Shown here piece by piece: positions 27,973-49,590 of a DNA stretch of 64,000 nucleotides (its first letter is position 1; each line of letters begins with the position of its first letter). Below the pieces are notes generated by a model. That model worked only from the letters and a program-made list of their open reading frames with translations, ran no database searches and was not told where the DNA came from. The DNA is from Corallococcus sp. NCRR (lineage in GTDB: Bacteria; Myxococcota; Myxococcia; Myxococcales; Myxococcaceae): positions 7,907,461-7,971,460 of the forward strand of contig NZ_CP114039.1 in NCBI RefSeq assembly GCF_026965535.1, given 5' to 3'. The position numbers and the translations under genes were made by a program.

Positions 27973-29244
<1,272 letters not shown>

Positions 29245-29376
29245 CTACCTGCACCTGGGGGCGGGGGGTGGGAAGGCGGCATTTCCGGGGCGGCCCGGCG
29301 GTTACATTGGGTCCTTCCGTTACCGATTCACCGCGCGTCTTGGGTCGCCGCGCCATTTCCGTTACAAGCCGCCGCC

Positions 29377-30975: not shown

Positions 30976-31002
30976 TCCTTCGCTACTTCAGGCAGTGCCC
31001 AC

Positions 31003-31045
31003 GCCGCCCGTTTCCGGTCCTCCGGAAGCGAGGCGGCGTTTTCGT
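31003..31045 (+). terminator. Putative intrinsic terminator downstream of the ABC-F gene at the island boundary
   Basis: Imperfect inverted repeat gccgcccgtttccgg-tcct-ccggaagcgaggcggc followed by GTTTTCGTG. Confidence 0.4.
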
Positions 31046-31149
31046 GCAGGTGTCAATCACCCTCACGGGGGATGCAATCGCAGCGAGGAGTGCGCCAGAA
31101 CCTGGGGTGCCAGGTCGTCCCACCCATGACGACCCGGGGGGGCACCTCC

Positions 31150-34100
31150 ATGACTCCGAACGACTCGGTCCTGCTGAAAGAGCTTCAGCAGCAACGCACC
31201 CGGTTGCTGGATCTGAGCGCAACCAACCGACTCCTCCATTTCAAGCACACGGCCCGGACGTCGCTGCGCATTGTGGATGAATTGCCAGGTGTCGTCTTCG
31301 AGCGCCTGAGCAACCACCGCGCGCTCACGTTCCTGCCGGTGATGCCGCCGGCGCATGCCTCCAAGGAAGAGGAGGACGTCGACCCCGCCGCCGCGACGGT
31401 GGTGTTTTCGATGACGACGGAGGAAGCCCCCAGCAAGGACGCCCGTCAGAATCTGGTGCTTCAACAGGCGAAGAAGTTGGGCATTGATACCCGGTATGAG
31501 CTGCCCAAGGCGCTCCCGGCAGAGAGCGGCAGCAATCCTCGCAAGCACCAGGACCGCCACCTCCAGACGTTGTACTTCCCGGAGGATCTGGAGAGCCACT
31601 TGCACCGTATCCAGGGCCTCGCGCAAACGGCCATCCAGGAGACCGGAGCCAACCTGCTCCACTTCGTCTTCGGGTTCCTGCGCTGGTACGAGTCTGGCGA
31701 CACGCGGCAGGAGAAGCCTCGCAGCGCTCCGCTCGTGCTCATGCCGGTGAGCCTCAAGCGCGGTCAGGCGCACCCGGAGACGCAGGTCCACGCCTACGAA
31801 GTGGACTACAACGAAGGCGAGTCCATCGAAACGAACCTCACGCTCCAGGAGAAATTGCGGCAGGAATTCGGCATCACGCTGCCGGCCTTCTCCGCGGACG
31901 AGGGCCTGGAGGCGTACTTCGACAAGGTGACGACGCTGCTCAAGGGACTGCGTCCTGGCTGGAGCCTGGAGCGGCAGGTGACCCTGACGCTGCTGTCCTT
32001 CGGGCGGCTCCTGATGTGGCGGGACCTGGAGCCTACCCGCTGGCCCCAGAACAGTCCCATGCTGGCGAACCCGCTCGTCCGAACACTGATGGGAGGACAG
32101 GCGCAGGCGAACGAACCTGGTGGAGGTGGCGGGGGCAGTCGGGAACGCCGGAGCGAGGTCTACGACCTGGATTCACCCGAGGTAAATCCTCCGCCGCTCA
32201 TCACGGACGCCGACAGCAGCCAGCACAGTGTGTTGGTGGACGTACTCCGAGGCGAAAACCTGGTGGTCCAGGGGCCGCCTGGCACCGGGAAATCACAGAC
32301 CATCACCAACCTCATTGGCGCGGCGCTGGCGGCGGGCAAGACCGTGCTGTTCGTCACGCAGAAGCTGGCGGCGCTGGAGGTCGTCTCGCGCCGCCTCCAG
32401 CAGGCGGGGCTCGGCGAGTTCTGCCTGGAGTTGCATAGCCACAAGACCCAGAAACAGCAGTTCATGGAGGATCTGCGTCGACGACTCAACCTGGATACGA
32501 GCGCGAGCGCCCCTCGCCCTCTCACCGAACAGGTCTTGAGCGCGGCAGGCATCCTGCGCGCGCACACCGAGCGAATGCACAAGCCTTTCGGGACGCTCGG
32601 CATGTCACCGCACGACGTGTTCTGGAAGGTCAGTCGTGCGGAGTCAGAGTTGGGGGAAGCGGTCGTGGAGTTGGAGGGCCTCCGCTTCGAGGGCGCTGAA
32701 GGTATGTCCCCCCTTGCGCTGGCGGAGGTTCGCAACGCGGTTCGGAACCTCGCGGCGCAACTGGGGGATGTTCGCCGCGTCGCGCCCATCCTCAGTGCCC
32801 ACCCATGGGCGGGTGTAACGAACGATGCGCTGACCGACAAGGACCGCCAGACACTCATTCAACGGATCGCCACCTGGGAAGAGTCCGCCCTACTTCTAGA
32901 GAAGGCGCTGGCGACCTTCACCGTCCGCACGGGCGTCACGCCCAGGTCGAGCGCGCTCGCGGTGGATGCGCTGGTCTCCAACATCCGGGTCCTGCCGCAG
33001 CTTCCGGAGGGTGCTCCCGCAACGCTGGTCCCTGCCCTACTCGATTCGACGCAGCGCCAGGGATTACGAGTCCTGCTCGATGCCATCGAAGCGGTCCAGA
33101 AGCAGTGGGCGGGGTTGGAGGCGGGCTGGCGAGCCCAGGAGGACCTGACCGTGACCGCGCTGCGCGACGCGGAAGCCGTCCTCGACATTACCCTGCGCCT
33201 GCTCTCGCCTGACACCACGCTCGTCACCCTGACGCGCGCGCACGAAGCGGTGGAAGCAGCGGCCCGAGGCCTGGGGCAGGCTCGCCGGTTCGTTGCCGAA
33301 GTGGCCTTGCGCCTGGAGGTCGACGTCACGCTCTGGACGCCTCAACAAATCCAGATTTTCGCCCGCGTCGTCGAGGCCATGGCCGCCCTGGACGACACCA
33401 CTTTGGAGTGGCGGGACCCACGCTGGCTTGAGCGCGAAGCCGAGGAGGCACTTCGGAAAGCCGGGGTGACGTGCACGGAATTGAAAGAGCAGGGCCGGGC
33501 GCTCGCGGTGCGCTTCATGCCCGAGCTTGTCCCTCCCCTCGCAACACTCAAGTCCCATGCCGTCGCGGTTTCGACCGCGCCATTCATCCCCTGGTTCTCG
33601 GGCGCATGGCGTGCCGCGCGGCGGGACTTCCAGGCCATGGCTCATGGTGTCCGTCCAACAAAGCCCGTACTCATCCAGGGATACAACGACCTGCTGGCAC
33701 ATTACGCGGCACGGGAGCGGTTCCAAGAGGACGCGACCCTGAAAGAGACCCTGGGTGCCCGCTTCCAGGGAATCGAGACGCGTTTCGATCGAATCCTCTC
33801 GTGGTTGGACACATACCGGAACATCGACGCATTGCTCCTCCCAATGGGCGAGCGAGGTCTGGAGCTGCGCCGCGCGGTGTTGGAGCGTTCCCCGAGCCAG
33901 TGGCGAGATGCCCTGGCGAGGGTCCGCGCGAAGAGTGATGAACTTCCCCAGGTCCGCGACGTGAGTACCTCCGTGCAAGAGGCCTCGACGCGCATGGGGC
34001 TGCCGCACGCGCCCTGGAACACCGAGCCCTGCGGAAAGGCCCAGGACAGTCTCGACGCCCTGCTGAAGCACCTGGGTAAGGTTCTGCATTGGGCACGGAA

Positions 34101-36348: not shown

Positions 36349-36361
36349 ACAGGAAATATCC

Positions 36362-37927
36362 ATGACAACGATCATCGCCATTGGCCTGGGCGTTTTGGGC
36401 CTTTTGCTCCTGGGCTTGTTGCTGCGGACGCGAAGCCAACTCAAGGCGGTCCAGGCACGATTCAAGCCCATCCTGGACCTGGAGGCCGAACGACGCCGGC
36501 TCGCGGAGGAGTTGACGCAAGCCCGCACTGACGCAACCGCCGCGATGGCTGCGGAACAGAAGCGGGTCCAGGATGAGTTGGCGAAGTCCCGGAGCGAAGC
36601 GGACAATGCGCTGGCTGCGGAGCGGAAGCGGGTGGAAACCGAGCTCGCCCGCGCCAAGGCGGACGTAGAGCAGGCCATCTCCGCGGAGCAGGGCCGGGCG
36701 AAGGCGGAGTTGAACCGGATCCGCGAAGAAACGAACCGGACGACGCAAAGCGCGACGCGCGCCATGGAGGAGGCGGAAGCACGTCGAAAGCAGGCGAACA
36801 CCGAGCGGACCAGCCTGGAAACAGGCCTTGCCCGATTGAAAGCCGAATTGAAGGCATTGGAGGAAGAGGAGGTTCTGCTCACCTTCGGCTTCTACAAACC
36901 GGTGTACGCGCTGGCGTCGGTCAAGGAGTACGAGGACCGCTTGGAGAGGATCCGCGAATCGCAGAAGCAGATGCTGAAGAACAAGGAAGCAGCCACATGC
37001 TCCATTCAGTGGGAGGTGAATGGGAGCAAGGCGGAAGGCAAGAAGCAGATTGACCGGACCTTGAAGCTGATGCTCCGGGCGTTCAATGGCGAGGCGGACG
37101 CATGTGTGGCGAAGGTCTCCTACAAGAACGTGAAGGCCATGGAGACGCGTATCGAGAAGGCAGCTGCCGCCATCAATGGCCTCGCGGAGATCCAGCAGTG
37201 CGTCATTGCCAGGCGCTACGTCAAGCTCAAGGTCGAAGAGTTGATGCTCGCGTATGAGTACGAGGAGAAGGTGCAGCAGGAGCGTGACGAGCAGCGCCGG
37301 ATCCGGGAGCAGATGCGTGAGGAGGAGGCCGCCCAACGCGAACTGGAAAAGGCGAAACTGGAAGCGGAGCGCGAAGCGAAGCGCGACGCGGAGGCCCTGG
37401 CCAAGGCGAAAGCGGACTACGAGCAGGCCAAAGGCTCAGAGCAGCAGAAGTTGATGGAGCGCATCGCGGAGCTGGAGCGCCGTGTGGCGGAGGACCTGGA
37501 GAAGCAGCGGGCCATCTCCCAGGCCCAACTCACCCGGACAGGGCACGTCTACGTCATCTCCAACATCGGCTCGTTCGGGGAGGGCGTGTTCAAGATGGGC
37601 ATGACCCGCCGGCTGGTGCCCCAGGACCGCATCGACGAACTGGGAGACGCCTCGGTGCCGTTCGAGTTCGACGTTCACGCCATCATCCGGACCTCGGACG
37701 CCCCAGCCCTGGAAAACGCCCTGCACAAGGCCTTCGCGAACCGGCGCGTCAACCGCATCAACGAGCGCAAGGAGTTCTTCCGCGTCAACCTGGATGAGAT
37801 CGCGGAAGCGGTCCGCAAGCACCACGGCGAGTTTGAATTGACCCGGGTGGCCGAAGCTGCGGAATACCGGAAGACATTGGCACTCCAAGAGGAGGAACAG
37901 GGTCGACCCGGTGAGCGGGCCGCATGA
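36362..37927 (+). CDS. Membrane-anchored coiled-coil protein with DUF4041 and a C-terminal T5orf172 (GIY-YIG-superfamily) domain
   Basis: N-terminal TM MTTIIAIGLGVLGLLLLGLLL; long E/R/A/K-rich coiled coils; DUF4041 (LLTFGFYKPVYALASVKEYEDRLERIRESQ...); T5orf172 (GHVYVISNIGSFGEGVFKMGMTRRLVPQDRIDELGDASVPFEFDVHAIIRTSDAPALENALHKAF); starts 14 nt after the helicase stop. Confidence 0.78.
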   Translation: MTTIIAIGLGVLGLLLLGLLLRTRSQLKAVQARFKPILDLEAERRRLAEELTQARTDATAAMAAEQKRVQDELAKSRSEADNALAAERKRVETELARAKADVEQAISAEQGRAKAELNRIREETNRTTQSATRAMEEAEARRKQANTERTSLETGLARLKAELKALEEEEVLLTFGFYKPVYALASVKEYEDRLERIRESQKQMLKNKEAATCSIQWEVNGSKAEGKKQIDRTLKLMLRAFNGEADACVAKVSYKNVKAMETRIEKAAAAINGLAEIQQCVIARRYVKLKVEELMLAYEYEEKVQQERDEQRRIREQMREEEAAQRELEKAKLEAEREAKRDAEALAKAKADYEQAKGSEQQKLMERIAELERRVAEDLEKQRAISQAQLTRTGHVYVISNIGSFGEGVFKMGMTRRLVPQDRIDELGDASVPFEFDVHAIIRTSDAPALENALHKAFANRRVNRINERKEFFRVNLDEIAEAVRKHHGEFELTRVAEAAEYRKTLALQEEEQGRPGERAA

Positions 37928-39701
37928 ATTCGGCCCCGCCTACACTTCTGGTAGCGTTCACCTCTCAATGAGTTCCAACCCGTTTTCGTTTCCTGGGGAT
38001 GCGCTCCCCGACGCTGTCATTTCTGCCTCTAAAACTCGGAAAATCGCGTTCCTGGTAGGCTCTCCCTTGTCGACACAGGAAAGAGCCGACGCGCCCCAGG
38101 TTCCTGGCGTGAGCGCGATGGTGGCTCTGATCCGCGAGCACCTTCCGGCCGAAGCCCAAGCAAAATTTGACGCAGACCGACTGCATAACCAATCCAACGA
38201 GTACCAATGGGCCATGCGCTTCCTGCAGGGCCGAAGCAACAAAACGGCCGCCGAGAAAGTCGTACGAGAAGCTGTCCTCCGGGCACGGCTGGATCGACAA
38301 AAGGATGGCGCTGCCACGGACGAACAGCTTGACCAAGACTATCGTGGATGGGCGCTGCCGCCTGCGACGGAGCACCTCGGCAAACTCCTGGTGGAGAGGG
38401 CCGACAAGTTTGGTCCTGTCTTGACTACAAACTTCGACCCCCTCATCTCCGCGTCAATCAAGATGGCTGGCGGGAATTTCCATCGCACCCTCGTAGTCAA
38501 CGACAGTCCCTTCGGGCATACGACGCCGTCCTCCAACTCGACACACATCATTCATCTGCACGGGTACTGGCACAATTCGCCCACGCTACATACCAGCGCA
38601 CAGATCGCTCGTGATCGTGATCAGGTCGCCGCAGAACTCGTTCAGATCCTTCAAAACCACACACTCATTGTCGTCGGATACGGCGGCTGGGATGACATCT
38701 TCACCAAGACGCTCTCAGCGATCAACGCCAACCGGCACAATGACGTCGACATTCTCTGGGCATTCTACGAAACCGAAGCAGACCATCTGCTTGAGGCTCG
38801 CTATCAGCATCTATTCAGCAAGGTCACCAACTTAAGAGGCAATACGGGCCTTCGCTGCTACAGCGGAATCAATTGCCACAAATTCTTCCCTGAACTGCGG
38901 AGGCAGTTTGACGCATCCATTGCCCCGCAGACGCTCCCTCCCAGCACAATCCGACCGCCACCGCAGCCATCCTCCACAAGGGCCCCAAGCTCCAAAGCAT
39001 CTGAGCCAGTCGCCTCGACATCCTCAAGTGCGGCGAAGCCACCCGCGCCTGTGCCCCCCGTGTCGGACCGTCCCGCCTCCCCTTCCATTCCGAAAACAGA
39101 CGGCTCGGGCAGCCCTCCGAAATCGGGCTCCAGGAGGATCCTTACGTTTGCGGCAGCCGCGCTGATTGCCGGCGGGATGGCAGCAGTCTGGCCATCCCCG
39201 AGCAAAGACGTCAGCAATGACGTCTTCGTCGTTCAGACTCCGCGCAATCTGAGGCCTGTCCAGCCGCAGCCTCCTGCGGCTTACACTCCGTTCCCATCTC
39301 CCGCCGGTGGAACACTCCGGACCGCCCGCCAGCAACACCAGGTCGTACCTGCTTCGGACGCCGAACGTGGGACTCGCGTCTCGCAGCTTCCCAGGGGCCG
39401 TTACGCCTTTGTCCCGATGAGCGCTGTTCCCACCTATAGCGCGGACACATCCATCTATGGCCCGATCCAGGAGGGAATCGAGCTTCATCGCGCCCTCTCG
39501 GATGGGTCCCTGTACCTCGTGGGCTACGCGGATGCTCCAACCATCACGGCCCTGGGATATCCGAACCCTGCTCCCATCGTCATCACCCCCACGCCCAGCA
39601 ACAGAAGGACGCAGGTCGCGAGCATTCCCGTGACCCGGATGGCCACCGCGGAAGTTCGCATGGACAAAGGCACCCGCGTGTTGGTCCTCCACCTCAACTA
39701 A
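37911..39701 (+). CDS. SIR2_2-family (defence-type sirtuin-like) protein with Pro/Ser-rich linker, single TM helix and C-terminal domain; GTG start at 37911 overlaps the upstream gene (alternative ATG 37968)
   Basis: SIR2_2 motifs KIAFLVGSPLS, VLTTNFDPLISAS, HIIHLHGYWHN, LIVVGYGGWDDIF; low-complexity PPQPSSTRAPSSKAS... linker; TM ILTFAAAALIAGGMAAVWP; about 190-aa C-terminal region. Confidence 0.72.
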   Translation: MSGPHEFGPAYTSGSVHLSMSSNPFSFPGDALPDAVISASKTRKIAFLVGSPLSTQERADAPQVPGVSAMVALIREHLPAEAQAKFDADRLHNQSNEYQWAMRFLQGRSNKTAAEKVVREAVLRARLDRQKDGAATDEQLDQDYRGWALPPATEHLGKLLVERADKFGPVLTTNFDPLISASIKMAGGNFHRTLVVNDSPFGHTTPSSNSTHIIHLHGYWHNSPTLHTSAQIARDRDQVAAELVQILQNHTLIVVGYGGWDDIFTKTLSAINANRHNDVDILWAFYETEADHLLEARYQHLFSKVTNLRGNTGLRCYSGINCHKFFPELRRQFDASIAPQTLPPSTIRPPPQPSSTRAPSSKASEPVASTSSSAAKPPAPVPPVSDRPASPSIPKTDGSGSPPKSGSRRILTFAAAALIAGGMAAVWPSPSKDVSNDVFVVQTPRNLRPVQPQPPAAYTPFPSPAGGTLRTARQQHQVVPASDAERGTRVSQLPRGRYAFVPMSAVPTYSADTSIYGPIQEGIELHRALSDGSLYLVGYADAPTITALGYPNPAPIVITPTPSNRRTQVASIPVTRMATAEVRMDKGTRVLVLHLN

Positions 39702-39707
39702 CAATCA

Positions 39708-40370
39708 ATGACACTCAACAATCGAATCCTCATTCTTGGGCTGACGTCGGTTATCCTGCTAGCGGGCTGTGGGCCCGAGGACTTCAGCCCGGGCCCCATC
39801 ACGGAAGACCCGCCACTCGAAGAAATTTGTACTTCGGCGAACTGCGCAGGCTGCTGCGATCCAACCACGAACAAGTGCGTCGAAGTTCGCACCAACGATG
39901 CATGCGGAGTCACCGGCACCCAATGCACGAAGTGCGCGACCGGGACCATCTGCCATCCATCACAGCAGCAGTGCTACACCCCCACCATCCGCACGAAGAT
40001 CCAGCCTCTGCGCGCCCAGATCGCGCCGCAGGATCCTGCCGACAACAGTGATTGGGATGTGGATGGCTCGCCGCCGGATGTCGTGATCAAGCTGTCCTGC
40101 CCCAACGCGCAGCCTGCGCCCCCATCCGAGGAAGTTGAAAGCTTCACTCCCACCTGGACGAAGGGGGCATGCGACGTCCTGAGCACCGATCTGCTTTCGG
40201 CCCCCATCCAGTTCAGCGTCATCGACGTCGACACCCTCTTTGACGACCCGATTGCGTCGGTGCAGTACCAGGTGACTCGAGCCGACACTGACCGTGGCGT
40301 CCTGGAGTTCACGGGGTCCGGTGCGTTGCTCTCCGTGGCTTTCCAGGTCACCACCTACTACGCCGAATAG
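39708..40370 (+). CDS. Cys-rich lipoprotein (paralogue of 47184..47801)
   Basis: Lipobox ILLAGCGP; Cys-rich N-terminal module (CTSANCAGCCDPTTNKCVEV...CGVTGTQCTKCATGTICH...CYTP); shared motifs DWDVDGSPPDVVI and VQYQVTRAD with the 47184 gene; starts 7 nt after the SIR2 gene. Confidence 0.58.
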   Translation: MTLNNRILILGLTSVILLAGCGPEDFSPGPITEDPPLEEICTSANCAGCCDPTTNKCVEVRTNDACGVTGTQCTKCATGTICHPSQQQCYTPTIRTKIQPLRAQIAPQDPADNSDWDVDGSPPDVVIKLSCPNAQPAPPSEEVESFTPTWTKGACDVLSTDLLSAPIQFSVIDVDTLFDDPIASVQYQVTRADTDRGVLEFTGSGALLSVAFQVTTYYAE

Positions 40371-41488
40371 ACGGATACCTCGATCCGCCGCCAGCGTTGC
40401 TGGATGCTGGCGGCCATGTGCTTGCGGAGGTTTGCCATCCAGCGCTGACACGTCCTGGTCGCATCCTGCTCCCCTGCATTGAAGCCCAGTTCCAGGTCGA
40501 GGGCCCAATGCAGACTGGTGATGGCCTCGAGCCGCAGCTCATCCGGGGCCTTGAGCCGCGAGCGGGCCGCTGCCTCGAAGCATGGGTCCAGGAGGAGTGC
40601 CGCGATCGTGAGTTGAGGGCACGCCCCGCTTCGCCGGTCGATCAGCTCCCACAGTGCCGCCAGTGGCTCCGGACGCGCTCCGCCAATCAGCATCGCGACA
40701 ACGGCCAGCTTGTGGAAGATGGGATGTGTCTCACGGAAGAGCGCGAGGATTTCAGCATCCACGCCAGGACTCATCTCCACCGCTGCTTCCACGTGCAGCA
40801 CCAGCTCCTTACGGTCCAACCATCGGAGCGCGCGCGGGCCGGGGTCGAGAAGGAGGGCATCCATGAACGATGGGTACCCGCCATACTCCTGATAATAGCG
40901 CACACCTGCATTGCCCAGTCCCGCCCGCGCGTAGGTGCGAGGCCGGTCCGACAGAACGCCCGCGACACACGCTTCCTCCATGTCACAGCAAGACAACTCC
41001 GCGCCTCGGAGATTGGCGCAGCGCAGGTCCGCCTTCATCAATGTCGCTGCGGTCAAACGGGCGCCCTGAAGCCGGACGCGGCGGAATGAGCCGCGCACCA
41101 GGTTCGAAGCCGTGAGGGTCGCCCCTTCCATGGAGGCATCGTCCCAGCAGGTGCCCATCGCGACACACGCCATCAAACTGGCGCGCTCCAATCGCGCCCA
41201 GGACAGCGAGGCACCTGACAACGTGGCGAAGTCGAGCCGCGCCTCTTGGAGCCCGCAGTCGTCCAGACGGGCGCCATCGAGCCGTACATGGACGAGATCC
41301 GCGCCCGGTAGCTCTTCTTGTGTGAGGTCGATGCCTCGGAGATCCCCCACTTGGGGCCCCAGTGCATCCGCTCCCGGAAAGCCCTTGAGGACTTCACGCC
41401 AGGGCCCCTGGAATCCCGAGGCGAGCAGTCGCTCGCGCCGATGCAAGCCATCAGGTGTGAGCCAGCGCTCTGTCAGTTCGGGCAGCAT
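40358..41488 (-). CDS. Pentapeptide-repeat protein
   Basis: Many tandem A(D/N)LxG-type pentapeptides (ADLVHVRLDGARLDDCGLQEARLDFATLSGASLSWARLERASL...; ADLRCANLRGAELSCCDMEEA). Confidence 0.8.
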   Translation of the reverse strand: MLPELTERWLTPDGLHRRERLLASGFQGPWREVLKGFPGADALGPQVGDLRGIDLTQEELPGADLVHVRLDGARLDDCGLQEARLDFATLSGASLSWARLERASLMACVAMGTCWDDASMEGATLTASNLVRGSFRRVRLQGARLTAATLMKADLRCANLRGAELSCCDMEEACVAGVLSDRPRTYARAGLGNAGVRYYQEYGGYPSFMDALLLDPGPRALRWLDRKELVLHVEAAVEMSPGVDAEILALFRETHPIFHKLAVVAMLIGGARPEPLAALWELIDRRSGACPQLTIAALLLDPCFEAAARSRLKAPDELRLEAITSLHWALDLELGFNAGEQDATRTCQRWMANLRKHMAASIQQRWRRIEVSVYSA

Positions 41489-41591
41489 GGCCGGGCTATA
41501 ACACCTGGAACCAGAGGCGTTCGATGCCCTCCGGAACGTTCGCTATTCCTGATGCCGGGAGCACGGGTACCAGTGGGTATGATGCAAGGCC

Positions 41592-43043
41592 ATGTACCCG
41601 ATTCGCCGCCTTCTCGTTCGTGGACCGTGGTTGTTCGACCTCCGACCGCATCGGCTCATCGCCTTCCACGGAGCTGAAGGCATGCGCCGGGAGGTAGAAG
41701 GAGACGTGCCGGAGTACTCGTCCGCGCCCGTAGTGCTCGCCGCGCTCAATGAGTCAACGGACGTCTGGGTGGGAAGCGGGGATCGGCGTGTCTTCTCCGT
41801 GAGCACCGATGTGAGCGCATCCGTTCAGGCCTTTCCGAGGGAATGCTTCGATCTCACCTCCGATGGGAACCGGCTCATTGGAACGATGGTGGACGGCGCC
41901 CTCAAGCTGACCACCGTCTTCACGACCGATGGGTCCGGGCAGCGTTGGGAGCCCATGACTTTGCCCAAGCCCGTGTCCACCACGCACGGGTATGGCTATT
42001 CCGAGGGACGCCCTCCCCGTCAGTCCCCAGATGGGGCGTTCCTCGACACGAGCCCCTTTGGCATCACCGTCGTGGAGAAGGGCCGGGGCCGCGTCTACGT
42101 GCTCCGCTCGGGGGCGGCTCAGCCGGAGGGCGCGCTCCAGGTGGAACCGGGCCATGAGCAGGACATCTGGCGGGCCCTGGCCACTTCCCAGGGTGTGCTT
42201 CTCCTGCTCGTCATCGACTACCGGCAGACGGTGCTTCTTCACTTCGCGCTCGACGGCACCCTACTCGGCTCCCTCCCGTCCAACGATGAGGATGAGGACG
42301 AAGATGACGTTGAACTGACCTGGGGCGGTAAAGGGGTGTGCGTTCTCGACTCGGAGCGGGCGCTCCTCTTCGTGCAGGACAAGACCCTCCTGGTATCCCT
42401 GCCCGGGCTCCAGGTGCTTGAGACGCTCGCGGGGGAGTGGCCCCAATTCGTGTCCGTGGCGCCCGCTGGGCCAAACCGGTGGTGGGTGGGGTCCGAGGAC
42501 AGTGACGCGCTCTTCCTGCTCACCGCCGAGCCCGGACAGCCCTTGCGCCTCGACACCTCGAACCGTCCGGTGAGCCCGGGCGCGCCGCTCATGCACGTGG
42601 GCTACAAGACACCCACGCTCCACTGGACCGAACACACCTCGGCACCGCTGACTGTGTCCGCGCCCGTGTCCGAGACGTGGCGGGCGGTGGTGCGCAATGA
42701 CGGGACCGCGTGCGAGGCGGTACGGATCCGCGTGTCCGGGGTGCTCATCGGTGCTCGTGTGGTGGACGTGAGCGTGCGGTATCGCGGTCAGCCACTCCCG
42801 ATGGAGGAGGAGCACCGCGTGAACGTCGTGGGGGTTACCGGCGGCCTGGAGGCAGGGGCCACCGCGGAGCTGGAGATGACCTTCAAGCCCCGGAGCGAGG
42901 GCTCAGGACCGCTGACCATCACCGTCGAGCCATGCTCCTGGCAGTCTCAGGGCAAAGAGTGGCAGTGGGACAAAGAGCCGTCTCGCGTCCTCGTGGTGAC
43001 GGGCCATTCGGCATCCGCTCAATTCCTGCTCACGGTGGAGTAG
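41592..43043 (+). CDS. Hypothetical protein (possible beta-propeller-like N-terminal half plus Ig-like C-terminal)
   Basis: 483-aa ORF with ATG at 41592, consistent coding bias, no recognisable catalytic motif. Confidence 0.5.
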   Translation: MYPIRRLLVRGPWLFDLRPHRLIAFHGAEGMRREVEGDVPEYSSAPVVLAALNESTDVWVGSGDRRVFSVSTDVSASVQAFPRECFDLTSDGNRLIGTMVDGALKLTTVFTTDGSGQRWEPMTLPKPVSTTHGYGYSEGRPPRQSPDGAFLDTSPFGITVVEKGRGRVYVLRSGAAQPEGALQVEPGHEQDIWRALATSQGVLLLLVIDYRQTVLLHFALDGTLLGSLPSNDEDEDEDDVELTWGGKGVCVLDSERALLFVQDKTLLVSLPGLQVLETLAGEWPQFVSVAPAGPNRWWVGSEDSDALFLLTAEPGQPLRLDTSNRPVSPGAPLMHVGYKTPTLHWTEHTSAPLTVSAPVSETWRAVVRNDGTACEAVRIRVSGVLIGARVVDVSVRYRGQPLPMEEEHRVNVVGVTGGLEAGATAELEMTFKPRSEGSGPLTITVEPCSWQSQGKEWQWDKEPSRVLVVTGHSASAQFLLTVE

Positions 43044-44199
43044 CGCGAACCTTCTCGGGCTCGGGTGCGGCGCTCATCCTCCAGAGCAGGGCGCCTCCCC
43101 CAATGACGACTCCCAGGCCCACTGCCGCCGCGAGGATCCATCCTCGTCCCAGGCGGGGCCGTGCCTGGCTCTCCGGGCCGTCCGGAGCCGGGGCAATGAC
43201 GCTCGGATCGTCGCTCGGTGAGACCTGTTGGACGAGTTGGGCCACCTGTTTCGGTGTCACCGGCTCCCTCACCGAACGGATGAAGGCCTCCAGGTCCTTC
43301 CGGAACGCGTGGCAGTCCGGATACCGCTCGTCCCGATCCTTCGCGAGCGCCCGGGCGAGGATGGCTCGTAGGGCATCGGGCAGGTCTGGCCGGTGCTGCT
43401 CGGCAGGGACGATGGGCTCAGTCGCGACGACCCGAAACAAGTCCCAGTCGGACGTGGACTCAAAGGGCCTACGCGTGGTGAGCAGTTCGTAGAGCACCAG
43501 ACCCAGCGCGTAGACGTCCGCCCGCCGGTCCAACGGCCTGCCCATGACCTCCTCGGACGCCATGTACCTGTACTTGCCTAGGTTGGGCATGGGGTGTTCG
43601 GGTGTCCACCGGATCCGGAAATGCTCGATGCCGAAGTCCACCACCTTCGTCGTCCCCTGGCGCGACAGGAGGATGTTGTACGGCCGGATGCAGCGGTGGA
43701 TGAGCCGCAGCGGCTGGTTCGTCTCGGGGTCGGTGAGGTCGTGGGCATAGGCGAGCCCCTCGCAAGCTTGCGAGATGATGCGCGCGCACAGCGTCGCTGG
43801 CAGGGTCATCCGCTGGGCCACCACGTGATTGATCACCCCGCGCAGGCTGGGCCCATCAACGTGCTCTCTCGCGAGAAAGTACGTGCCTTCCGCCTCACCT
43901 ACATCAAAGACCTTCCCGAGGTGCGGGTGCGTGAGCCGGGCGGCGTCCCTCGCCGTGTCGAGGAACATCTCCGGGACATCCACCTGCTCCGCCATGTCCG
44001 AGCGGAGGCACTGGAGCACCAGCGTCTTCTCGACGCCCCGCGGGCCGGCGGCCGTGGCCAGATGGTCCTCGATGATGCCTTCGGAGAGCAGGCGGATGCG
44101 CTGGTATTTGCCGACTTGGGATGTCACGGGGCGTATGAATAGCAGACCATGACCCGCTACCGCTTCCTTGGGCTTCTGCTGGCGCTGCTGCCTCTCCAT
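43030..44199 (-). CDS. Degenerate Ser/Thr protein kinase (pseudokinase) with C-terminal TM anchor
   Basis: Kinase fold recognisable (DFG present: VVDFGIE; C-lobe YALGLVLYELL) but no Gly-loop, beta3 Lys absent (VLQCLR), catalytic loop HRCIRPYN instead of HRDLKPxN, SEE instead of APE; TM GWILAAAVGLGVVIGGGALLW; ATG at 44199 (alternative GTG at 44127); the track ORF upstream extension is antisense. Confidence 0.6.
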   Translation of the reverse strand: MERQQRQQKPKEAVAGHGLLFIRPVTSQVGKYQRIRLLSEGIIEDHLATAAGPRGVEKTLVLQCLRSDMAEQVDVPEMFLDTARDAARLTHPHLGKVFDVGEAEGTYFLAREHVDGPSLRGVINHVVAQRMTLPATLCARIISQACEGLAYAHDLTDPETNQPLRLIHRCIRPYNILLSRQGTTKVVDFGIEHFRIRWTPEHPMPNLGKYRYMASEEVMGRPLDRRADVYALGLVLYELLTTRRPFESTSDWDLFRVVATEPIVPAEQHRPDLPDALRAILARALAKDRDERYPDCHAFRKDLEAFIRSVREPVTPKQVAQLVQQVSPSDDPSVIAPAPDGPESQARPRLGRGWILAAAVGLGVVIGGGALLWRMSAAPEPEKVRATPP

Positions 44200-45900
44200 G
44201 TCAGCGCTGTCCCCATTCCAGCGGAGCAGTTGGTGGGAACCTGGGGCAGTGAGCGCGTCCTCGGACCTCAGGTTCGCGGAGAGTTGACACTGGTTCGTGA
44301 AGGAACGACGTGGCGAGCATGCATCGCGGGCTTCGACGTCCCGGCCCAGGTCGAGGGCCGCAAGGTGTCCGTCGTCTTCCCAGGCGGCGAACTCCGAGCG
44401 ACGTTGGCGGAGAACGGCCAGATCATCTCGGGGCACTGGATCCAGCCGCGCGTGCTCATGAGCGGCATGAAGTTCGCCTCTCCCGTGGAGCTGCGCGCGC
44501 TTCAGCCGAGGGTCTGGCGCGGCAACGTGGCTCCGCTGGAGGACCGGTTCTCGCTGTACCTCGTCGTCCAGAAGCAGCCTGACGGCTCCGTGACGGCATT
44601 CATCCGCAACCCGGAGCGGAACTTCGGCAACCGCATGCTGTTCCGCGTGGAGCTCCAGGACCGCACGGTCCGGCTCACGTCCACCAAGGACAACACCCGT
44701 ATCGAAGGCACGTTCGACGCGCAGTCCGGACGGCTGTCCCTCCCCTACCCTCCCTTCGACACGATGTTCGACTTCACCCGCCGGGACCGTTCGCAGGCCG
44801 TGGGTCTCTACTCCCGCACACCTGCTCCCGGCCCCTACGCCTACCAAAAGCCCATCGCGGAGGATGACGGTTGGACCACGGCATCCCCTACCGACGTCGG
44901 CATGGACATCCAGCCGCTCCAGCAACTCGTGCAGCGCATCCTCGACCAGGAACCGAGCCCGGAATCCGTCCCCGCCATTCAGGGCCTGCTCATCGCGCGC
45001 CATGGAAAGCTCATCCTCGAAGAGTACTTCCAGGGCTTCGACAAGGAGCGTCCCCATGACCTGCGGTCCTCCTCCAAGTCCTATGCGTCCCTGCTGATTG
45101 GCATTGCCCTGGACCAGGGCGCCCCCTTCACCGTGGACACGCCCGTCGCGTCACTCTTCCCCGAGTACAAGGGCAAGCTCTCCAACCTGGACGCGCGCAA
45201 GCGCAAGCTCACCGTCGCTCACCTGATGACCATGGCCACGGGTCTGGCCTGTGACGACGACGATCCGGATTCACCTGGCAACGAGGACCGGCTCGAGGAC
45301 TCCGTACCGGATTGGTACAAGTACACGCTAGACCTCCCCATGGTCCGCGCTCCCGGCGGTGGGAAGGCCGTGTACTGCTCCGCGAACATCAACCTGCTCG
45401 GGGGCATCCTCCACAACACCACCCGCACCTGGATCCCCGAGTTCTTCACCCAGAACGTCGCCACGCCCCTCCAGATGCGCGGCTACCACCTGGACCTGAT
45501 GCCCGACGGCGAGCAGTACCTGGGCGGCGGCATCTACATGCGTCCCCGCGATGCCCTGAAGCTCGGGCAGCTCTACCTCTCCGGCGGCACGTGGAATGGG
45601 AAGCGCGTGGTGAGCCAGCGATGGGTGGAACGCTCCGTCGCGAAACAGGCGACGATGCCGGATGGACGAACCTACGGCTACACGTGGTGGCGCCATGAGC
45701 TTCGCGTCGGTGACCGGGTGTATTCGCAGTACGAAGCCAGCGGCAACGGTGGCCAGCTCGTGATGGTCGTCCCGGAGCTGGACCTCGTCGTGCTGTTCAC
45801 CGCGGGCAACTACAACCACGTCTCCCTCTGGCGGAAGTTCCGCGAGGAGCTCCTGCCCCGGTACGTCATGGCCGCGGTCACGGCTCCCCCGCGGCCCTGA
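44149..45900 (+). CDS. Beta-lactamase-family serine hydrolase (class C / PBP-like) with N-terminal extra domain
   Basis: Signal peptide MTRYRFLGLLLALLPLHVSA; SxxK motif SSSKSYASLLIGIAL; YxN-like; starts 50 nt inside the divergent pseudokinase 5' end. Confidence 0.8.
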   Translation: MTRYRFLGLLLALLPLHVSAVPIPAEQLVGTWGSERVLGPQVRGELTLVREGTTWRACIAGFDVPAQVEGRKVSVVFPGGELRATLAENGQIISGHWIQPRVLMSGMKFASPVELRALQPRVWRGNVAPLEDRFSLYLVVQKQPDGSVTAFIRNPERNFGNRMLFRVELQDRTVRLTSTKDNTRIEGTFDAQSGRLSLPYPPFDTMFDFTRRDRSQAVGLYSRTPAPGPYAYQKPIAEDDGWTTASPTDVGMDIQPLQQLVQRILDQEPSPESVPAIQGLLIARHGKLILEEYFQGFDKERPHDLRSSSKSYASLLIGIALDQGAPFTVDTPVASLFPEYKGKLSNLDARKRKLTVAHLMTMATGLACDDDDPDSPGNEDRLEDSVPDWYKYTLDLPMVRAPGGGKAVYCSANINLLGGILHNTTRTWIPEFFTQNVATPLQMRGYHLDLMPDGEQYLGGGIYMRPRDALKLGQLYLSGGTWNGKRVVSQRWVERSVAKQATMPDGRTYGYTWWRHELRVGDRVYSQYEASGNGGQLVMVVPELDLVVLFTAGNYNHVSLWRKFREELLPRYVMAAVTAPPRP

Positions 45901-45907
45901 CCGGCGT

Positions 45908-46567
45908 TCAATCGCGGTCCGGCGCTCCCAGCGGGAAGAAATGCCGGTAGGGCCGCCCCCCATCCACCGCGCGGGCAACGGACGGGCGCGCGAGCAACCT
46001 CGCGCGATAGGCGCGCAGTTGGGGACACGACTCGGGAATCCGATGCGTCCAGTCCGCGTAGAACAGCGACGGCGCGGCCGCACAGTCCGCCAGAGTGAAG
46101 TCGTTGCCCGCCGCCCAGGTCCGGCCCCCCAGCTGCCCTTCAATCCAGCCGTAGGCGCGCTCCAGTTTCTCCACCGCCATCTTCATCCCGTCCTGGCGCT
46201 TCACCGGATCCCCCGTCAGCGCTCCGTCCACGGCGTGCTGGGCCGCGTTCATGACGTGCAGGTCGAAGAAGCGGTCGAGGAACCGCACGTCCAGCGCGGC
46301 CATCGGTTCCTCCGGCAACAGGCGCACCTGCCCGGGATGCTTCAGCTGGAGATACTCGATGATGATGCTCGTCTCGACGACCTGACGGTCCCCGTCCACC
46401 AGCAGCGGGAACTTGCGCAGCGGCCAGCGGCGCAGCCATTCGGCTGAATGCTCCGGCGTCTCCGGGCTGATGCTTCGAAACTCGAAGGACGTGCCGTTCT
46501 CGTACAGCGCGATGAGCACCTTCTGCGTGTACGAAGAGAAATAGTGACCGTAGACCGCGAGCGACAT
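45908..46567 (-). CDS. Glutathione S-transferase family protein
   Basis: MSLAVYGHYFSSYTQKVLIALYENG...FPLLVDGDRQVVETSIIIEYL thioredoxin-like N-domain; ATG at 46567. Confidence 0.8.
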   Translation of the reverse strand: MSLAVYGHYFSSYTQKVLIALYENGTSFEFRSISPETPEHSAEWLRRWPLRKFPLLVDGDRQVVETSIIIEYLQLKHPGQVRLLPEEPMAALDVRFLDRFFDLHVMNAAQHAVDGALTGDPVKRQDGMKMAVEKLERAYGWIEGQLGGRTWAAGNDFTLADCAAAPSLFYADWTHRIPESCPQLRAYRARLLARPSVARAVDGGRPYRHFFPLGAPDRD

Positions 46568-46646
46568 CGTTGGACCCCTCCATGAGACCACTTGCGTTTC
46601 GCAATGGGTTGAACCGTAGTTGGACCCCTTGCATACTGCAAGGAGC

Positions 46647-47150
46647 ATGGCCAGGCCTCAAACAGGGCGCTCCGGCTGCCCCATCAACCTGACACTCGAA
46701 CAGCTCGGCGACCGTTGGAGCCTGATCGTCATCCGCGATGTCATGTTCGGGAACCGGCGCAGCTACGGCGACCTGCTCTCGCAGAGCGAGGAAGGCATCG
46801 CCTCCAACATCCTCGCGGACCGGCTCAAGCGCCTGACCGCGTCCGGCCTGCTGTCGCGGCGTCCGGATCCGAAGCACCAGCAAAAAGGCATCTACAGCCT
46901 CACGGAGGCGTCCATCCAACTGGTGCCCCTGCTCGCGCACATGGGGGCCTGGGGCCGCCGACACACACAGGTGAGCGAGGAGCTGTCCGTGCGCGCGGAG
47001 CTGCTGGAGAAGGGCGGCCCGCCGCTCTGGGACGCGTTCATGGAGGAGTTGCGCCACCTGCACCTGGACGCTCCACGCCCTTCCCGCTCGGTGTTCCGTG
47101 AGCTTCAGGCCGCATATGAGAAGGCCGTCGCACGCAAGGCCCGGGACTGA
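46647..47150 (+). CDS. HxlR-type winged-helix transcriptional regulator
   Basis: CPINLTLEQLGDRWSLIVIRDVMFGNRRSYGDLL...IASNILADRLKRLTASGLL; aggag RBS at 46641-46645; divergent from the GST gene. Confidence 0.82.
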   Translation: MARPQTGRSGCPINLTLEQLGDRWSLIVIRDVMFGNRRSYGDLLSQSEEGIASNILADRLKRLTASGLLSRRPDPKHQQKGIYSLTEASIQLVPLLAHMGAWGRRHTQVSEELSVRAELLEKGGPPLWDAFMEELRHLHLDAPRPSRSVFRELQAAYEKAVARKARD

Positions 47151-47183
47151 AGGTCCTGAAACGGGTTAGCGTTCACCGCGCTC

Positions 47184-47801
47184 ATGAAAGTCCTCGGCTG
47201 GTTGTTCGTCCTGATGTGCGCGCTGTGGCTCCCTGCATGCGGTCCCTACGACTGCACCCCGGAGAACTGCGCGGACGGCTGCTGCTCCGCGCTCAATGAG
47301 TGCATCCGCTACCGGAGCGACTCGGAATGCGGCCCCAATGGCGGCCTCTGTGAAGCCTGCGGGGCAGGCAGTGTCTGCCGGCTGGACCAGCGCGCCTGCT
47401 ACACGGGCGTGATGCGCACCTTCATCCAGCCCCGGTACGCCACCATCGCGGACTTCGACCCGGACACGGGCGAGGACTGGGATTCCGATGGCTCGCCGCC
47501 GGACGTCGTCGTGGAGATGAACTGCCCCTCCGCTCCCGAACGCACCCGCACCGAGGAAGACGAGAGCTGGGACCCCGAATGGAGGACCGGCGGCTGCCAG
47601 GTCATCACGTCCAACCTCCTGCGCTACCCGCTCGAAATCTCCATCTTCGACAACGACGACTACACCTTCGATGACGAGTTCGGCGGCCTCTCCTACCAGG
47701 TCACCCGCGCAGACCTGAACCTGGGCCGCATCGAGCTCTCCATCCCGCCCATCGTGAAGACGCTCGTCTTCGACCTGAGCCACAACTACGCGCCGCAGTG
47801 A
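47184..47801 (+). CDS. Cys-rich lipoprotein (paralogue of 39708..40370)
   Basis: Signal/lipobox LWLPACGP; NCADGCCSALNEC...CGPNGGLCEACGAGSVC...CYTG; DWDSDGSPPDVVV; SYQVTRADLNLG. Confidence 0.58.
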   Translation: MKVLGWLFVLMCALWLPACGPYDCTPENCADGCCSALNECIRYRSDSECGPNGGLCEACGAGSVCRLDQRACYTGVMRTFIQPRYATIADFDPDTGEDWDSDGSPPDVVVEMNCPSAPERTRTEEDESWDPEWRTGGCQVITSNLLRYPLEISIFDNDDYTFDDEFGGLSYQVTRADLNLGRIELSIPPIVKTLVFDLSHNYAPQ

Positions 47802-47839: not shown

Positions 47840-48325
47840 ATGCGCGCCCACCTCCTGCCGCTCATGGTCCTGTTCACCGCCGCCTGTGGTCCCTCCTCCT
47901 CCGTGGACGAAGGGCTCGGCGTCGTCCAGGGCATCGACACGTCCGAGGACGGCATCACCGCCTTCGTCCGCTCGGGCCAGTACACCTCCTGGCTCGCGGA
48001 GCCCTCGGTCCACGACACGCGCGCGCCCCACGGCAGCAAGGTCCGCGTGTTCTTCAACGACGTCGTCGTGCAGTCCCTGCTCGATGGCAACGCCACGCAC
48101 CCCGTGGGCAGCATCCTGGTGAAGGAGCTCTTCGAGGATGACGGGAAGACGCTCCGGGGCCACGCGCTGGACGTGAAGGTCGCGGAAGGCCCCGGCAAGG
48201 ACACCTGGATCTTCTACGAGGGCTTCGGCCCCGACTACACGCGCAACTACTACGGCCGCGCCCACTCGACCTGTCACGGGTGCCACTCGGACGGGGTGGA
48301 CTACGTCACGTCCCCGCTGCCGTGA
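47840..48325 (+). CDS. Cytochrome P460-like periplasmic lipoprotein with CXXCH haem-binding motif
   Basis: Lipobox LFTAACGP; C-terminal STCHGCH (C-x-x-C-H); size about 160 aa; ATG at 47840. Confidence 0.5.
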   Translation: MRAHLLPLMVLFTAACGPSSSVDEGLGVVQGIDTSEDGITAFVRSGQYTSWLAEPSVHDTRAPHGSKVRVFFNDVVVQSLLDGNATHPVGSILVKELFEDDGKTLRGHALDVKVAEGPGKDTWIFYEGFGPDYTRNYYGRAHSTCHGCHSDGVDYVTSPLP

Positions 48326-48379: not shown

Positions 48380-49423
48380 CTACCGCGCCGCGGACTTGCG
48401 GCGCATCAGGAACACGCCCAGGCCCACGCCCGCGGCCCACTTCGCCGCGGCGGCCAGCGGCGTCTTGCCAAGCGCCACCGGGCGGCTCTCGTACTGGGGC
48501 TGGGGCGGAACCGGACGGAAGTCCGTGGCGCCGGGGAGGTTCGCGCCCTGCTCCTCCGCCTCCGTCTTCGTCACGTTCGGTCCCGGTGCATCCGGATCGC
48601 GCGCACCCGGCGCCTTCCCGTCCGGCGACTTGTGCTCGAGGATGCCGTTGATCTCCGCGCCCAGCAGCACGACCATGCAGGAGATCTGCATCCACAGCAG
48701 CATCACGATGACACCGCCGATGGCGCCGTAGTTCACGTCGTACGAGCCGAAGTTCGACACGTACTTCGAGAACCCCCACGAGGCGATGACCCAGATGATC
48801 ACGCTCACCACCGACCCCGGGGTGATGAACTTGAACTTCTGCTTCACGTCCGGCAGCACGTAGTACAGCACCGCCAGCAGCAGCATCATCAGGATGCCCG
48901 CCACGGGCATGCGCAGCCACAGCACGAGGTTGGTGAGCAGTCCGCCGCCCAGCCTGTCCGCGATCGCCGGCGTCACGACGGCGACGAGGGCCGCCAGCAC
49001 CACCGTGATGGCCGTGCCCAGCGTCGTCAGCAGCGCGATGCCACGCTTCTTCCAGAACGGTCGCTTCTCCGTCACGCCATAGACCGTGTTGAGCGCGTCC
49101 ATCAGCGCCACCACACCGCCCGAGGCCGCCCAGACAGCGCCCACGCCACCGATCGTCAGGAGCCCCACCGGGTTGCTGCTCGCCAGCGCCTCCAGCCGCT
49201 CGCCCAGGATCTTCGTCACCTCCTGGGGTGCCACCTTCGACAGCTCCTGGATGAGCTGCTGCGCCTGGTGCGGATCAATCAGCACGCCGGCCAGTGACAC
49301 GAGGAACAGCAGGAACGGGAACAGCGCCATGATGGCGGAGAACGTCAGCGCCCCCGCGACGTTGCCCACGTTGTCGCGTCCCCACTCGTCCTTGAGGGAC
49401 TTGAAGAACTCCTTCCAACTCAT
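48380..49423 (-). CDS. YihY/BrkB (virulence factor BrkB / ribonuclease BN-like) family inner-membrane protein
   Basis: MSWKEFFKSLKDEWGRDNVGNVAGALTFSAIMALFPFLLFLVSL... six TM helices; ATG at 49423. Confidence 0.82.
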   Translation of the reverse strand: MSWKEFFKSLKDEWGRDNVGNVAGALTFSAIMALFPFLLFLVSLAGVLIDPHQAQQLIQELSKVAPQEVTKILGERLEALASSNPVGLLTIGGVGAVWAASGGVVALMDALNTVYGVTEKRPFWKKRGIALLTTLGTAITVVLAALVAVVTPAIADRLGGGLLTNLVLWLRMPVAGILMMLLLAVLYYVLPDVKQKFKFITPGSVVSVIIWVIASWGFSKYVSNFGSYDVNYGAIGGVIVMLLWMQISCMVVLLGAEINGILEHKSPDGKAPGARDPDAPGPNVTKTEAEEQGANLPGATDFRPVPPQPQYESRPVALGKTPLAAAAKWAAGVGLGVFLMRRKSAAR

Positions 49424-49590
49424 TCCCCTGCCGGGCAGGACCATGCGTCTCCTCCTGGGAGGAGATTGGGCATTCCATCCCCCGGCTGGCTTCCTCCCCC
49501 GGGACGAGGCCTGCCTCCCTGCCTGCTCACCGCGCAGGAGGCGAAGAATGACAAGCCCCCCGCGCCACGCCTGCCCGGCCGCCTTCAGCG

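Follow-up and report, generated by a model that had tools for sequence, protein, structure and literature searches.

What are two related cysteine-rich lipoprotein genes doing on either side of a block of accessory genes? In the window analysed here, a 64,000-nucleotide (nt) stretch of Corallococcus sp. NCRR (NZ_CP114039.1, positions 7,907,461 to 7,971,460), an earlier sequence-only reading had picked out two open reading frames (ORFs) that seemed to form such a pair: copy1 (39708–40370, + strand, 220 aa) and copy2 (47184–47801, + strand, 205 aa). The answer that best explains the data as a whole, and which we favor with moderate confidence, is that copy1 would be the lipoprotein subunit of a two-gene defense or conflict module, and copy2 an effector-independent tandem duplicate. 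The other gene of the module lies directly upstream of copy1 and encodes a SIR2 effector domain, a transmembrane (TM) helix and a C-terminal domain (CTD). The pair looks like an undescribed bacterial defense system that may sense the cell envelope.

BLASTP aligns copy1 and copy2 with 80 identities over 212 positions (38%, E = 2e-51), within the 35–40% that had been estimated by eye, and all elements of the layout that had been described for them fall in register: the lipobox, the Cys-rich module, DWDxDGSPPDVV, CP and YQVTRAD. The signal peptides end in VILLAGC/GPED for copy1 (lipobox LLAGC) and ALWLPAC/GPYD for copy2 (lipobox LPAC), and the family alignment shows no exception to the lipobox Cys; on these features both proteins are predicted lipoproteins. 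The Cys-rich heads are encoded by nt 39828–39974 and 47253–47399, and the C-terminal halves by nt ~39966–40367 and ~47391–47798. The lower GC content noted for copy1 was borne out (0.614 vs. 0.657 for copy2), as was its spacing from the SIR2 gene: the latter ends at 39701 and the copy1 ATG begins 7 nt beyond, at 39708. At third codon positions the GC content (GC3) is 0.76 for copy1 and 0.90 for copy2, compared to 0.92–0.98 for core genes. A hidden Markov model (HMM) of the lipoprotein family finds copy1 and copy2 as the only members in the 64-kb window, and an exact-motif scan of the complete Corallococcus chromosomes of loci L002 and L007 (one genome per species) finds this locus only; scattered copies, which would have made the bracketing coincidental, were thus not seen. 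The Cys-rich part of the lipoprotein profile also gives a weak match (E = 0.009) at 19397–19525 (− strand). Three copy1 orthologues (P0019, P0020 and P0021) are deposited at 141–142 aa, with an internal Met as start and the signal peptide and Cys-rich head lost; the full ORFs at these loci (L001:211–873, L015:2099–2776 and L009:~9217–9894) encode 220–225 aa and include the lipobox.

The family had been described as having no recognizable function, a statement that we would now revise, since the C-terminal half of both proteins is predicted to be a C2 domain (PF00168 fold, an eight-stranded beta-sandwich). The Pfam C2 model, whose cut-off is 22 bits, scores 20.5 bits against copy2 and does not match copy1; PF00168 is precomputed for the orthologues P0001 and P0009–P0013, and UniRef names P0019 and P0020 “C2 domain-containing protein.” The AlphaFold2 model of copy2, built from a 19-sequence alignment, has a predicted local distance difference test score (pLDDT) of ~90 over residues 70–205. 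When that model was compared with the PDB by Foldseek, the 50 best matches listed were all C2 domains (prob 1.00, E down to 3e-6, TMt 0.55–0.73), including those of intersectin-2, cPLA2, perforin, Munc13 and E-Syt. A profile search of the PDB with the lipoprotein family agreed: 26 of 27 matches were C2 domains (best E = 0.003), and PDB 3w56, deposited as “C2 domain protein” and which we take to be bacterial, also scored. Among 19–20 family sequences, no variation was seen at D100, D107, D156, D158, D163 or D164, and D102 is kept in 90% or more. The DWDxDGSPPD and DxDxxxxDD segments align with SDPYV and DHDMFSKDD of the plant C2 protein At3g17980, and also with the C2 domain of cPLA2, at positions that we presume to be the loop-1 and loop-3 Ca2+ sites. 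The acidic loop-1 and loop-3 residues typical of Ca2+-binding C2 domains therefore seem to be in place in the family sequences compared.

The head of the mature lipoprotein, about 50 aa, contains 10 near-invariant Cys residues, 9 of them strictly invariant, and two further invariant Cys lie inside the C2 domain (C114 and C138 of copy2). The sequence-only reading had suggested that the head might form a disulfide knot, which fits an exported domain of this composition. An exhaustive profile search found 1,629 cluster representatives of the lipoprotein family at E ≤ 1e-3, many of which carry 4–9 tandem Cys-rich modules ahead of a single C2 domain. Among such multi-repeat relatives (P0054, P0080 and P0088), there are proteins of 400–620 aa with 5–9 tandem copies followed by one C2 domain and a protein of 1279 aa with 10 matched Cys-rich stretches fused to a clostripain (C11) peptidase. 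The heads of copy1, copy2 and these three multi-repeat proteins match nothing in Pfam or NCBIfam, and the module appears to be a repeat unit that lies outside every curated family in those two collections. A metagenome scan with the lipoprotein profile returned only 8 loci, most of which are divergent or cut, and a CTD gene accompanies none of them; a scan of viral contigs and a plasmid blastn search gave no match.

The gene directly upstream of copy1 (37968–39701, + strand) encodes a 577-aa protein that comprises, from N to C terminus, a SIR2_2 domain, a Pro/Ser-rich linker, one TM helix and the CTD, predicted to be periplasmic. The SIR2_2 domain (38418–38777, + strand; Pfam E = 1.8e-11) covers residues 170–289 of a 596-aa ORF, and TTNFD and HLHG motifs are visible within it. 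The TM helix, ILTFAAAALIAGGMAAVWP (39138–39194, + strand), has a mean Kyte-Doolittle hydropathy of 1.79, and the protein has no other TM-like window. Four Lys/Arg residues flank the helix on its N-terminal side and one on its C-terminal side; hydrophobicity and these flanking charges together predict a cytoplasmic effector and a periplasmic CTD. The CTD itself (~125 aa; 39312–39698, + strand; CTD HMM E = 1.4e-59) belongs to no Pfam family and is common to TIR- and PNP-bearing homologues. PADLOC models match only ~110–130 residues of the SIR2 domain (E 2e-9 to 7e-7), and no NCBIfam family matches the protein. Relative to C. coralloides KYC2213 (L002), synonymous divergence (dS) is 1.09 for the SIR2 N-terminal domain (window 37968–38960) but 0.35 for the CTD, 0.33 for copy1 and 0.2–0.4 for neighboring genes. 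Because the value for the N-terminal domain is so far above those for the CTD and copy1, the SIR2 gene is apparently a mosaic in which recombination replaced the effector end only.

The association of CTD and lipoprotein extends well beyond Corallococcus. A homologue search with the TM–CTD alignment gave no match, presumably because its 8000 candidates had words in common with the Pro-rich linker; CTD contexts were gathered through homologues of the lipoprotein, and the sample so obtained spans roughly nine independent lineages of the lipoprotein and effectors of three types. Wherever a locus of the copy1-like clade includes sequence upstream of the lipoprotein gene, the CTD HMM picks out a gene directly ahead of it and in the same orientation. 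Full-length CTD genes of other loci match the HMM with E values of 1e-22 to 1e-59, and the gap between the CTD gene and the lipoprotein gene ranges from −4 to ~180 nt, always on the same strand. What varies is the effector. The CTD and lipoprotein occur with SIR2, or with cut ends, in the window and in L001, L002, L009, L013, L015 and L048, with SIR2 placed ahead of the TM helix in five Corallococcus loci. The effector is PNP_UDP_1 in L016, L026–L030, L033 and L046/L047, EAD5 plus PNP_UDP_1 in L045, and TIR_2 in L043 and L021, the latter frameshifted; the CTD genes of L044 and L049 are cut. In each partner protein a single strong TM segment separates the effector from the CTD (L033 has one extra TM-like window), and in most of them Lys/Arg residues are richer on the N-terminal side of that segment. 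At the level of single domains, PADLOC matches these effectors to pAgo-associated SIR2, a CBASS PN-superfamily effector and ThsB-like TIR.

CTD and lipoprotein also appear to diverge together: over 78 pairs, CTD identity correlates with lipoprotein identity with r = 0.93 (r = 0.90 without Corallococcus), and L021 (TIR) and L033 (PNP), despite their different effectors, have CTDs that are 61% identical and lipoproteins that are 75% identical. The conserved unit thus seems to be the TM helix, the CTD and the lipoprotein, and the cytoplasmic, nucleotide-degrading head appears to be exchangeable. Effector exchange on a constant chassis is a typical signature of abortive-infection or conflict systems. 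Two of these loci deserve separate mention. In L021, the TIR-TM-CTD gene is split (8628–9077 and 8791–9873) by a frameshift inside the TIR domain, which could be an assembly error or mark a pseudogene; its intact equivalent is L043:3242–4393. In L016 (6087–7607 and 10774–11469), the PNP-type module is flanked by Gmx_para_CXXCG, a DUF2380 lipoprotein and Imm52, all families tied to myxobacterial toxin/immunity loci.

How such a module might work can be sketched. We tentatively propose an undescribed immune or suicide module, although we regard this full version as rather less probable than its negation: an outer-membrane Ca2+/lipid-binding C2 lipoprotein and a periplasmic CTD would sense when phage or other attackers breach the envelope, cluster, and activate an interchangeable cytoplasmic NADase or nucleosidase of the SIR2, TIR or PNP type. 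The SIR2-TM-CTD protein would span the inner membrane once, with its SIR2 domain, of NADase type, on the cytoplasmic side. In M. xanthus, a Gly at position +2 predicts outer-membrane targeting of lipoproteins; copy1 and copy2 both have Gly at +2, and copy1 would probably be anchored there. Its C2 domain would probably bind membrane phospholipid in a Ca2+-dependent manner and contact the CTD. Perturbation of the envelope by phage adsorption or injection, or by membrane damage, would then alter the CTD–lipoprotein contact and cluster the single-pass proteins, and clustering would switch on the cytoplasmic enzyme and lead to cell arrest or death. TIR and SIR2 defense enzymes are activated by oligomerization, and a single-pass protein could signal by clustering; envelope-triggered activation of the effector is proposed on these grounds. 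Copy2 might serve as a second sensor or a decoy.

Why, then, are there two copies, and what separates them? We compared 14 Corallococcus-type loci by tblastn. A conserved frame consists of a uvrC-like gene, tgt and an ABC-F ATPase gene, followed by a variable region and then by copy2, a P460-like gene, YihY and RmlC. ABC-F, the conserved left flank (29146–30972, + strand; Pfam ABC_tran and ABC_tran_Xtn), is 89–96% identical in L005–L014, and the segment between it and copy2 (window 29146–47184) is a hot spot whose content varies among Corallococcus genomes. The site is empty in C. llansteffanensis (L010), where ABC-F lies ~100 nt from copy2. It holds an Hhe gene and a PD-Lambda-1 gene in L008 and L014. 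In L009 (C. sicarius) and L013 (C. praedator) these two are joined by SIR2 and copy1, and the longer arrangement seen in the window is found in C. coralloides (L002) and C. interemptor (L003 and L015). The cargo differs among L008, L011, L012 and L014. Hot-spot genes have a GC3 of 0.68–0.86 (0.68 for the SIR2 gene), compared to 0.92–0.98 for the flanks. Copy2 is kept in all Corallococcus loci examined, including those without SIR2 and copy1, and the latter two are missing together from many copy2-bearing genomes. The module therefore sits in a defense island: the region is variable, and Hhe and PD-Lambda-1 lie directly upstream. The claim that the two lipoprotein genes bracket a defense island needs amending in one respect: there is a block of genes between them, but the recognized defense genes (Hhe, PD-Lambda-1 and SIR2) lie upstream of copy1 rather than inside the bracket.

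Genomes without the intervening block provide the adjacency test that the sequence-only reading had called for, and its outcome was positive. Copy1 and copy2 are direct neighbors, 107–240 nt apart, in L009 (C. sicarius), L013 (C. praedator) and L001, a Myxococcaceae metagenome-assembled genome (MAG) with a 123-nt gap, and the 40.4–47.2 kb block occurs in one Corallococcus subclade only, with varying completeness. In C. interemptor AB047A (L015:2915–5980), copy1 is followed by a radical-SAM gene and an insertion sequence (IS) transposase and then by the contig end, another insertion at the site between the paralogues. A neighbor-joining tree of 56 sequences (100 bootstraps, about 184 columns) groups the copy1 proteins (bootstrap 97) and the copy2 proteins (100) as sister clades (99), nested as a pair among module-associated lipoproteins, and a deep A/B split recurs in the same form in each of the two. 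Copy1 and copy2 are tandem-duplicate paralogues, as their sister clades and their adjacency where the block is missing indicate. Copy1 nevertheless appears to behave as island cargo, with its low GC3 and a dS of 1.2 (vs. C. praedator), compared to 0.63 for copy2 and 0.19–0.46 for three core genes. By its presence and its GC3, copy2 resembles a core gene, yet it seems to evolve fast, its dN/dS of 0.44–0.50 being the top value in the region. The simplest reading of these patterns places a tandem duplication of a module lipoprotein at the base of Corallococcus. SIR2 plus copy1 would then have been lost repeatedly, and the six-gene block inserted later between the copies in one subclade, to which the window belongs; copy2 would have become independent of the effector gene and fixed beside the P460-like haem lipoprotein. 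Of the earlier proposal of duplication followed by island insertion, the duplication and the insertion of a block thus stand, but what was inserted is not the SIR2/helicase cluster.

The other earlier proposal, that the island carries its own diverged copy, survives in part, since copy1 travels with SIR2 and has low GC3 and deep dS. In its strong form, SIR2 plus copy1 would be horizontally transferred cargo and copy2 an old core gene beside an integration hot spot, so that the adjacency in C. sicarius and C. praedator would be a product of hot-spot position and not of duplication in situ. The hot spot with its empty site in L010 and its varied cargo suits this version, as do the low GC3 common to copy1 and SIR2, the island-like dS of copy1 and the many genomes that keep copy2 without the pair. 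We nonetheless consider it unlikely: the closest relative of copy1 is copy2 rather than a foreign module lipoprotein, the shared A/B split is what joint inheritance from one ancestor would produce, and tandem duplication is the simplest way to account for sister paralogues that lie side by side. Nor were mobile-element ends or flanking repeats found around the inserted block, or a tRNA gene in the window; the only notable repeat near the block is the stretch coding for DWDxDGSPPD itself (59 nt, 76% identical). On the side of function, a minority possibility that we take seriously is that the module is real but not directed at phage, and is instead a sensor of envelope stress, developmental cell death or kin/predator conflict in social myxobacteria, with the lipoprotein reporting the state or exchange of the outer membrane and the effector executing programmed death. 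The family is apparently confined to Myxococcota-type genomes and MAGs, L045 carries EAD5, an adaptor domain of conflict systems in multicellular bacteria (PMC7159879), L016 has the toxin/immunity-type flanks described above, and in the Rcs response RcsF follows this logic, an outer-membrane lipoprotein signaling to the periplasmic domain of an inner-membrane protein (PMC11709261). Set against these points, the module adjoins two validated anti-phage genes in a variable island in Corallococcus, the best-known cases of swapping among SIR2, TIR and PNP effectors come from phage defense, and no developmental or exchange genes are linked to it in the window.

Far less probable, in our view, is that there is no functional link at all, and that these are ordinary envelope lipoproteins (for instance Ca2+/lipid-binding proteins or redox partners of the P460-like protein), copy1 merely sharing an operon with SIR2. 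The consistent pairing of copy2 with a haem lipoprotein would fit, as would the existence of copy2 and many relatives without an effector gene and the lack of a defense-model match for either lipoprotein, but the CTD–lipoprotein linkage is kept in at least nine lipoprotein lineages, down to ~30% CTD identity and with three unrelated effectors, and chance operon sharing would not be expected to survive effector replacement. Our preferred reading, a two-gene module with copy2 as its effector-independent duplicate, has several points to contend with. Family members without a CTD gene are numerous (L017–L020, L042 and every copy2, among others), and the lipoprotein can therefore work without an effector. 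Neither the lipoprotein nor the CTD matched any PADLOC, Pfam or NCBIfam model at threshold, so the defense label rests on effector type and neighborhood, and outside Corallococcus the neighborhoods are of several kinds, with toxin/immunity families, HNH and a lanthipeptide synthetase alongside ordinary genes. The mirror-tree correlation between CTD and lipoprotein is confounded by shared descent, and the tree is a simple distance tree in which deep nodes outside the copy1–copy2 pair are weak (21–68). The single-sequence AlphaFold2 model of the CTD is all-beta with a pLDDT of 55, the Cys-rich head of the copy2 model scores below 55, and the placement of copy1 in the outer membrane depends on the M. 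xanthus sorting rule.

The remaining genes of the region complete the picture. Upstream of the SIR2 gene lie the Hhe-type helicase-nuclease (31072–36348, + strand), with DUF4011, AAA_11/12 and an MTES_1575 restriction endonuclease domain (PADLOC Hhe, E = 1.5e-283; PDC-S37, E = 0), and PD-Lambda-1 (36362–37927, + strand), with DUF4041 and T5orf172 (PADLOC PD-Lambda-1, E = 8e-152). We rejected the idea that SIR2 and copy1 form one system with either of them: Hhe and PD-Lambda-1 occur without SIR2 and copy1 in L007, L008 and L014, and outside Corallococcus the module occurs without both genes. The inserted block opens with a pentapeptide-repeat protein (40358–41488, − strand; Pfam Pentapeptide, E = 2e-19), which has no PADLOC match and whose gene is absent from the tandem genomes L009, L013 and L001. 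It is followed by a 483-aa protein (41592–43043, + strand) with no Pfam, NCBIfam or PADLOC match, absent from L002, and by a Ser/Thr kinase (43030–44145, − strand, start codon approximate; Pfam Pkinase, E = 3.6e-24). The kinase matches PADLOC PD-T4-6 (E = 2.7e-55), a further defense-model match downstream of copy1, albeit to generic Hanks-type kinase profiles of low specificity. A beta-lactamase-family serine hydrolase (44149–45900, + strand; Pfam Beta-lactamase, E = 9e-29), a glutathione S-transferase (45908–46567, − strand; Pfam GST_N and GST_C) and an HxlR-family regulator (46647–47150, + strand; Pfam HxlR, E = 1e-15) complete the block.

Downstream of copy2 is the P460-like haem lipoprotein (MRAHLLPLMVLFTAAC; 47840–48325, + strand), with a lipobox (FTAAC) and a CHGCH haem-binding motif; its match to Pfam Cytochrome_P460 is weak (E = 7e-4, under the gathering score), and its likely start is the ATG at 47840 rather than the overlapping GTG at 47798. 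This gene accompanies copy2 in all loci examined except L008. The conserved right flank in L002–L014 is a YihY/BrkB-family membrane protein (48380–49444, − strand; Pfam Virul_fac_BrkB, E = 4e-68). Elsewhere in the window, the GC content dips sharply to 0.593 at 17001–18000.

Most known SIR2-, TIR- and PNP-based defenses sense phage components inside the cell. If the conserved part of the present module is entirely extracytoplasmic, it would point to the envelope as the place where infection or attack is detected, an early checkpoint of which, to our knowledge, there are few known examples. If so, a role could be assigned to exported bacterial C2 domains, for which we know of no established function, and the module would be a bacterial counterpart of membrane-damage sensing by eukaryotic C2 domains. 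The three-way effector swap on one chassis offers a clean experimental handle, through the catalytic residues, the lipobox and the aspartates of the putative Ca2+ site. There are also consequences for annotation: Myxococcota genes labeled “hypothetical protein” that adjoin membrane-anchored SIR2, TIR or PNP genes probably belong with those genes, several deposited copy1 orthologues are shortened by a wrong start codon, and the ABC-F/copy2 junction can be regarded as a defense hot spot in Corallococcus.

How does this arrangement compare with what is known? The C2 domain resembles eukaryotic-type C2 domains (those of cPLA2, perforin, synaptotagmin/E-Syt and plant CAR proteins) in its predicted fold and in its acidic motifs of the DxxGxSDPY and DxDxxxxDD types. 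Unlike the cytosolic eukaryotic-type domains, it is predicted to be exported, lipid-anchored and fused to a 10-Cys head, and it has an extra invariant Cys pair and, in the window proteins, scores just below the Pfam gathering threshold. The proposed logic, in which an outer-membrane lipoprotein reports to an inner-membrane periplasmic domain that controls a cytoplasmic output, is that of RcsF–IgaA and of NlpE–CpxA, a comparable envelope-stress sensing pair. According to PMC11709261, RcsF is an outer-membrane lipoprotein that signals to an inner-membrane partner in the Rcs stress response. A likeness in logic, not in sequence or fold, is expected: the present module would act not through a phosphorelay but through a degradative enzyme that forms part of the membrane protein itself. 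The EAD-coupled NTPase conflict systems (Kaur, Burroughs, Iyer and Aravind, 2020; PMC7159879) share the TIR/SIR2/PNPase repertoire and the host range, and EAD5 is present in L045; in contrast to them, the window SIR2 protein has no EAD (Pfam finds SIR2_2 only) and no STAND, GAP1 or MoxR-vWA gene adjoins it. The membrane-associated “System 4” of that paper consists of EACC1 plus a caspase, a composition that differs from ours, and we rejected membership in it; the EAD-system descriptions compared (the PMC7159879 group) make no mention of a C2 domain or lipoprotein component. Literature searches found no published description of this two-gene module.

The closest relatives by effector are Thoeris ThsA/ThsB, DSR1/DSR2, SIR2-HerA, pAgo-SIR2/SPARSA and the CBASS nucleosidase effectors, which draw on the same domain families, as judged by domain-level HMM matches; a full-length PADLOC match was found neither for the window SIR2 protein nor for the effectors of its homologues. 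Membership in Thoeris, DSR, SIR2-HerA, SPARSA or CBASS was rejected, since only the effector domains match and the defining partners are missing: the neighboring genes include no ThsB, SLOG, HerA, pAgo or cyclase, nor a large DSR C-terminal region. The module resembles these phage defenses in its defense-island setting and in the exchange of effectors on a constant sensor part. It differs from them in what that constant part is, namely a TM helix with its periplasmic domain, plus a C2 lipoprotein, which would therefore place the sensing side outside the cytoplasm. The effector domains are already known; what appears to be new is the constant part, predicted to be extracytoplasmic.

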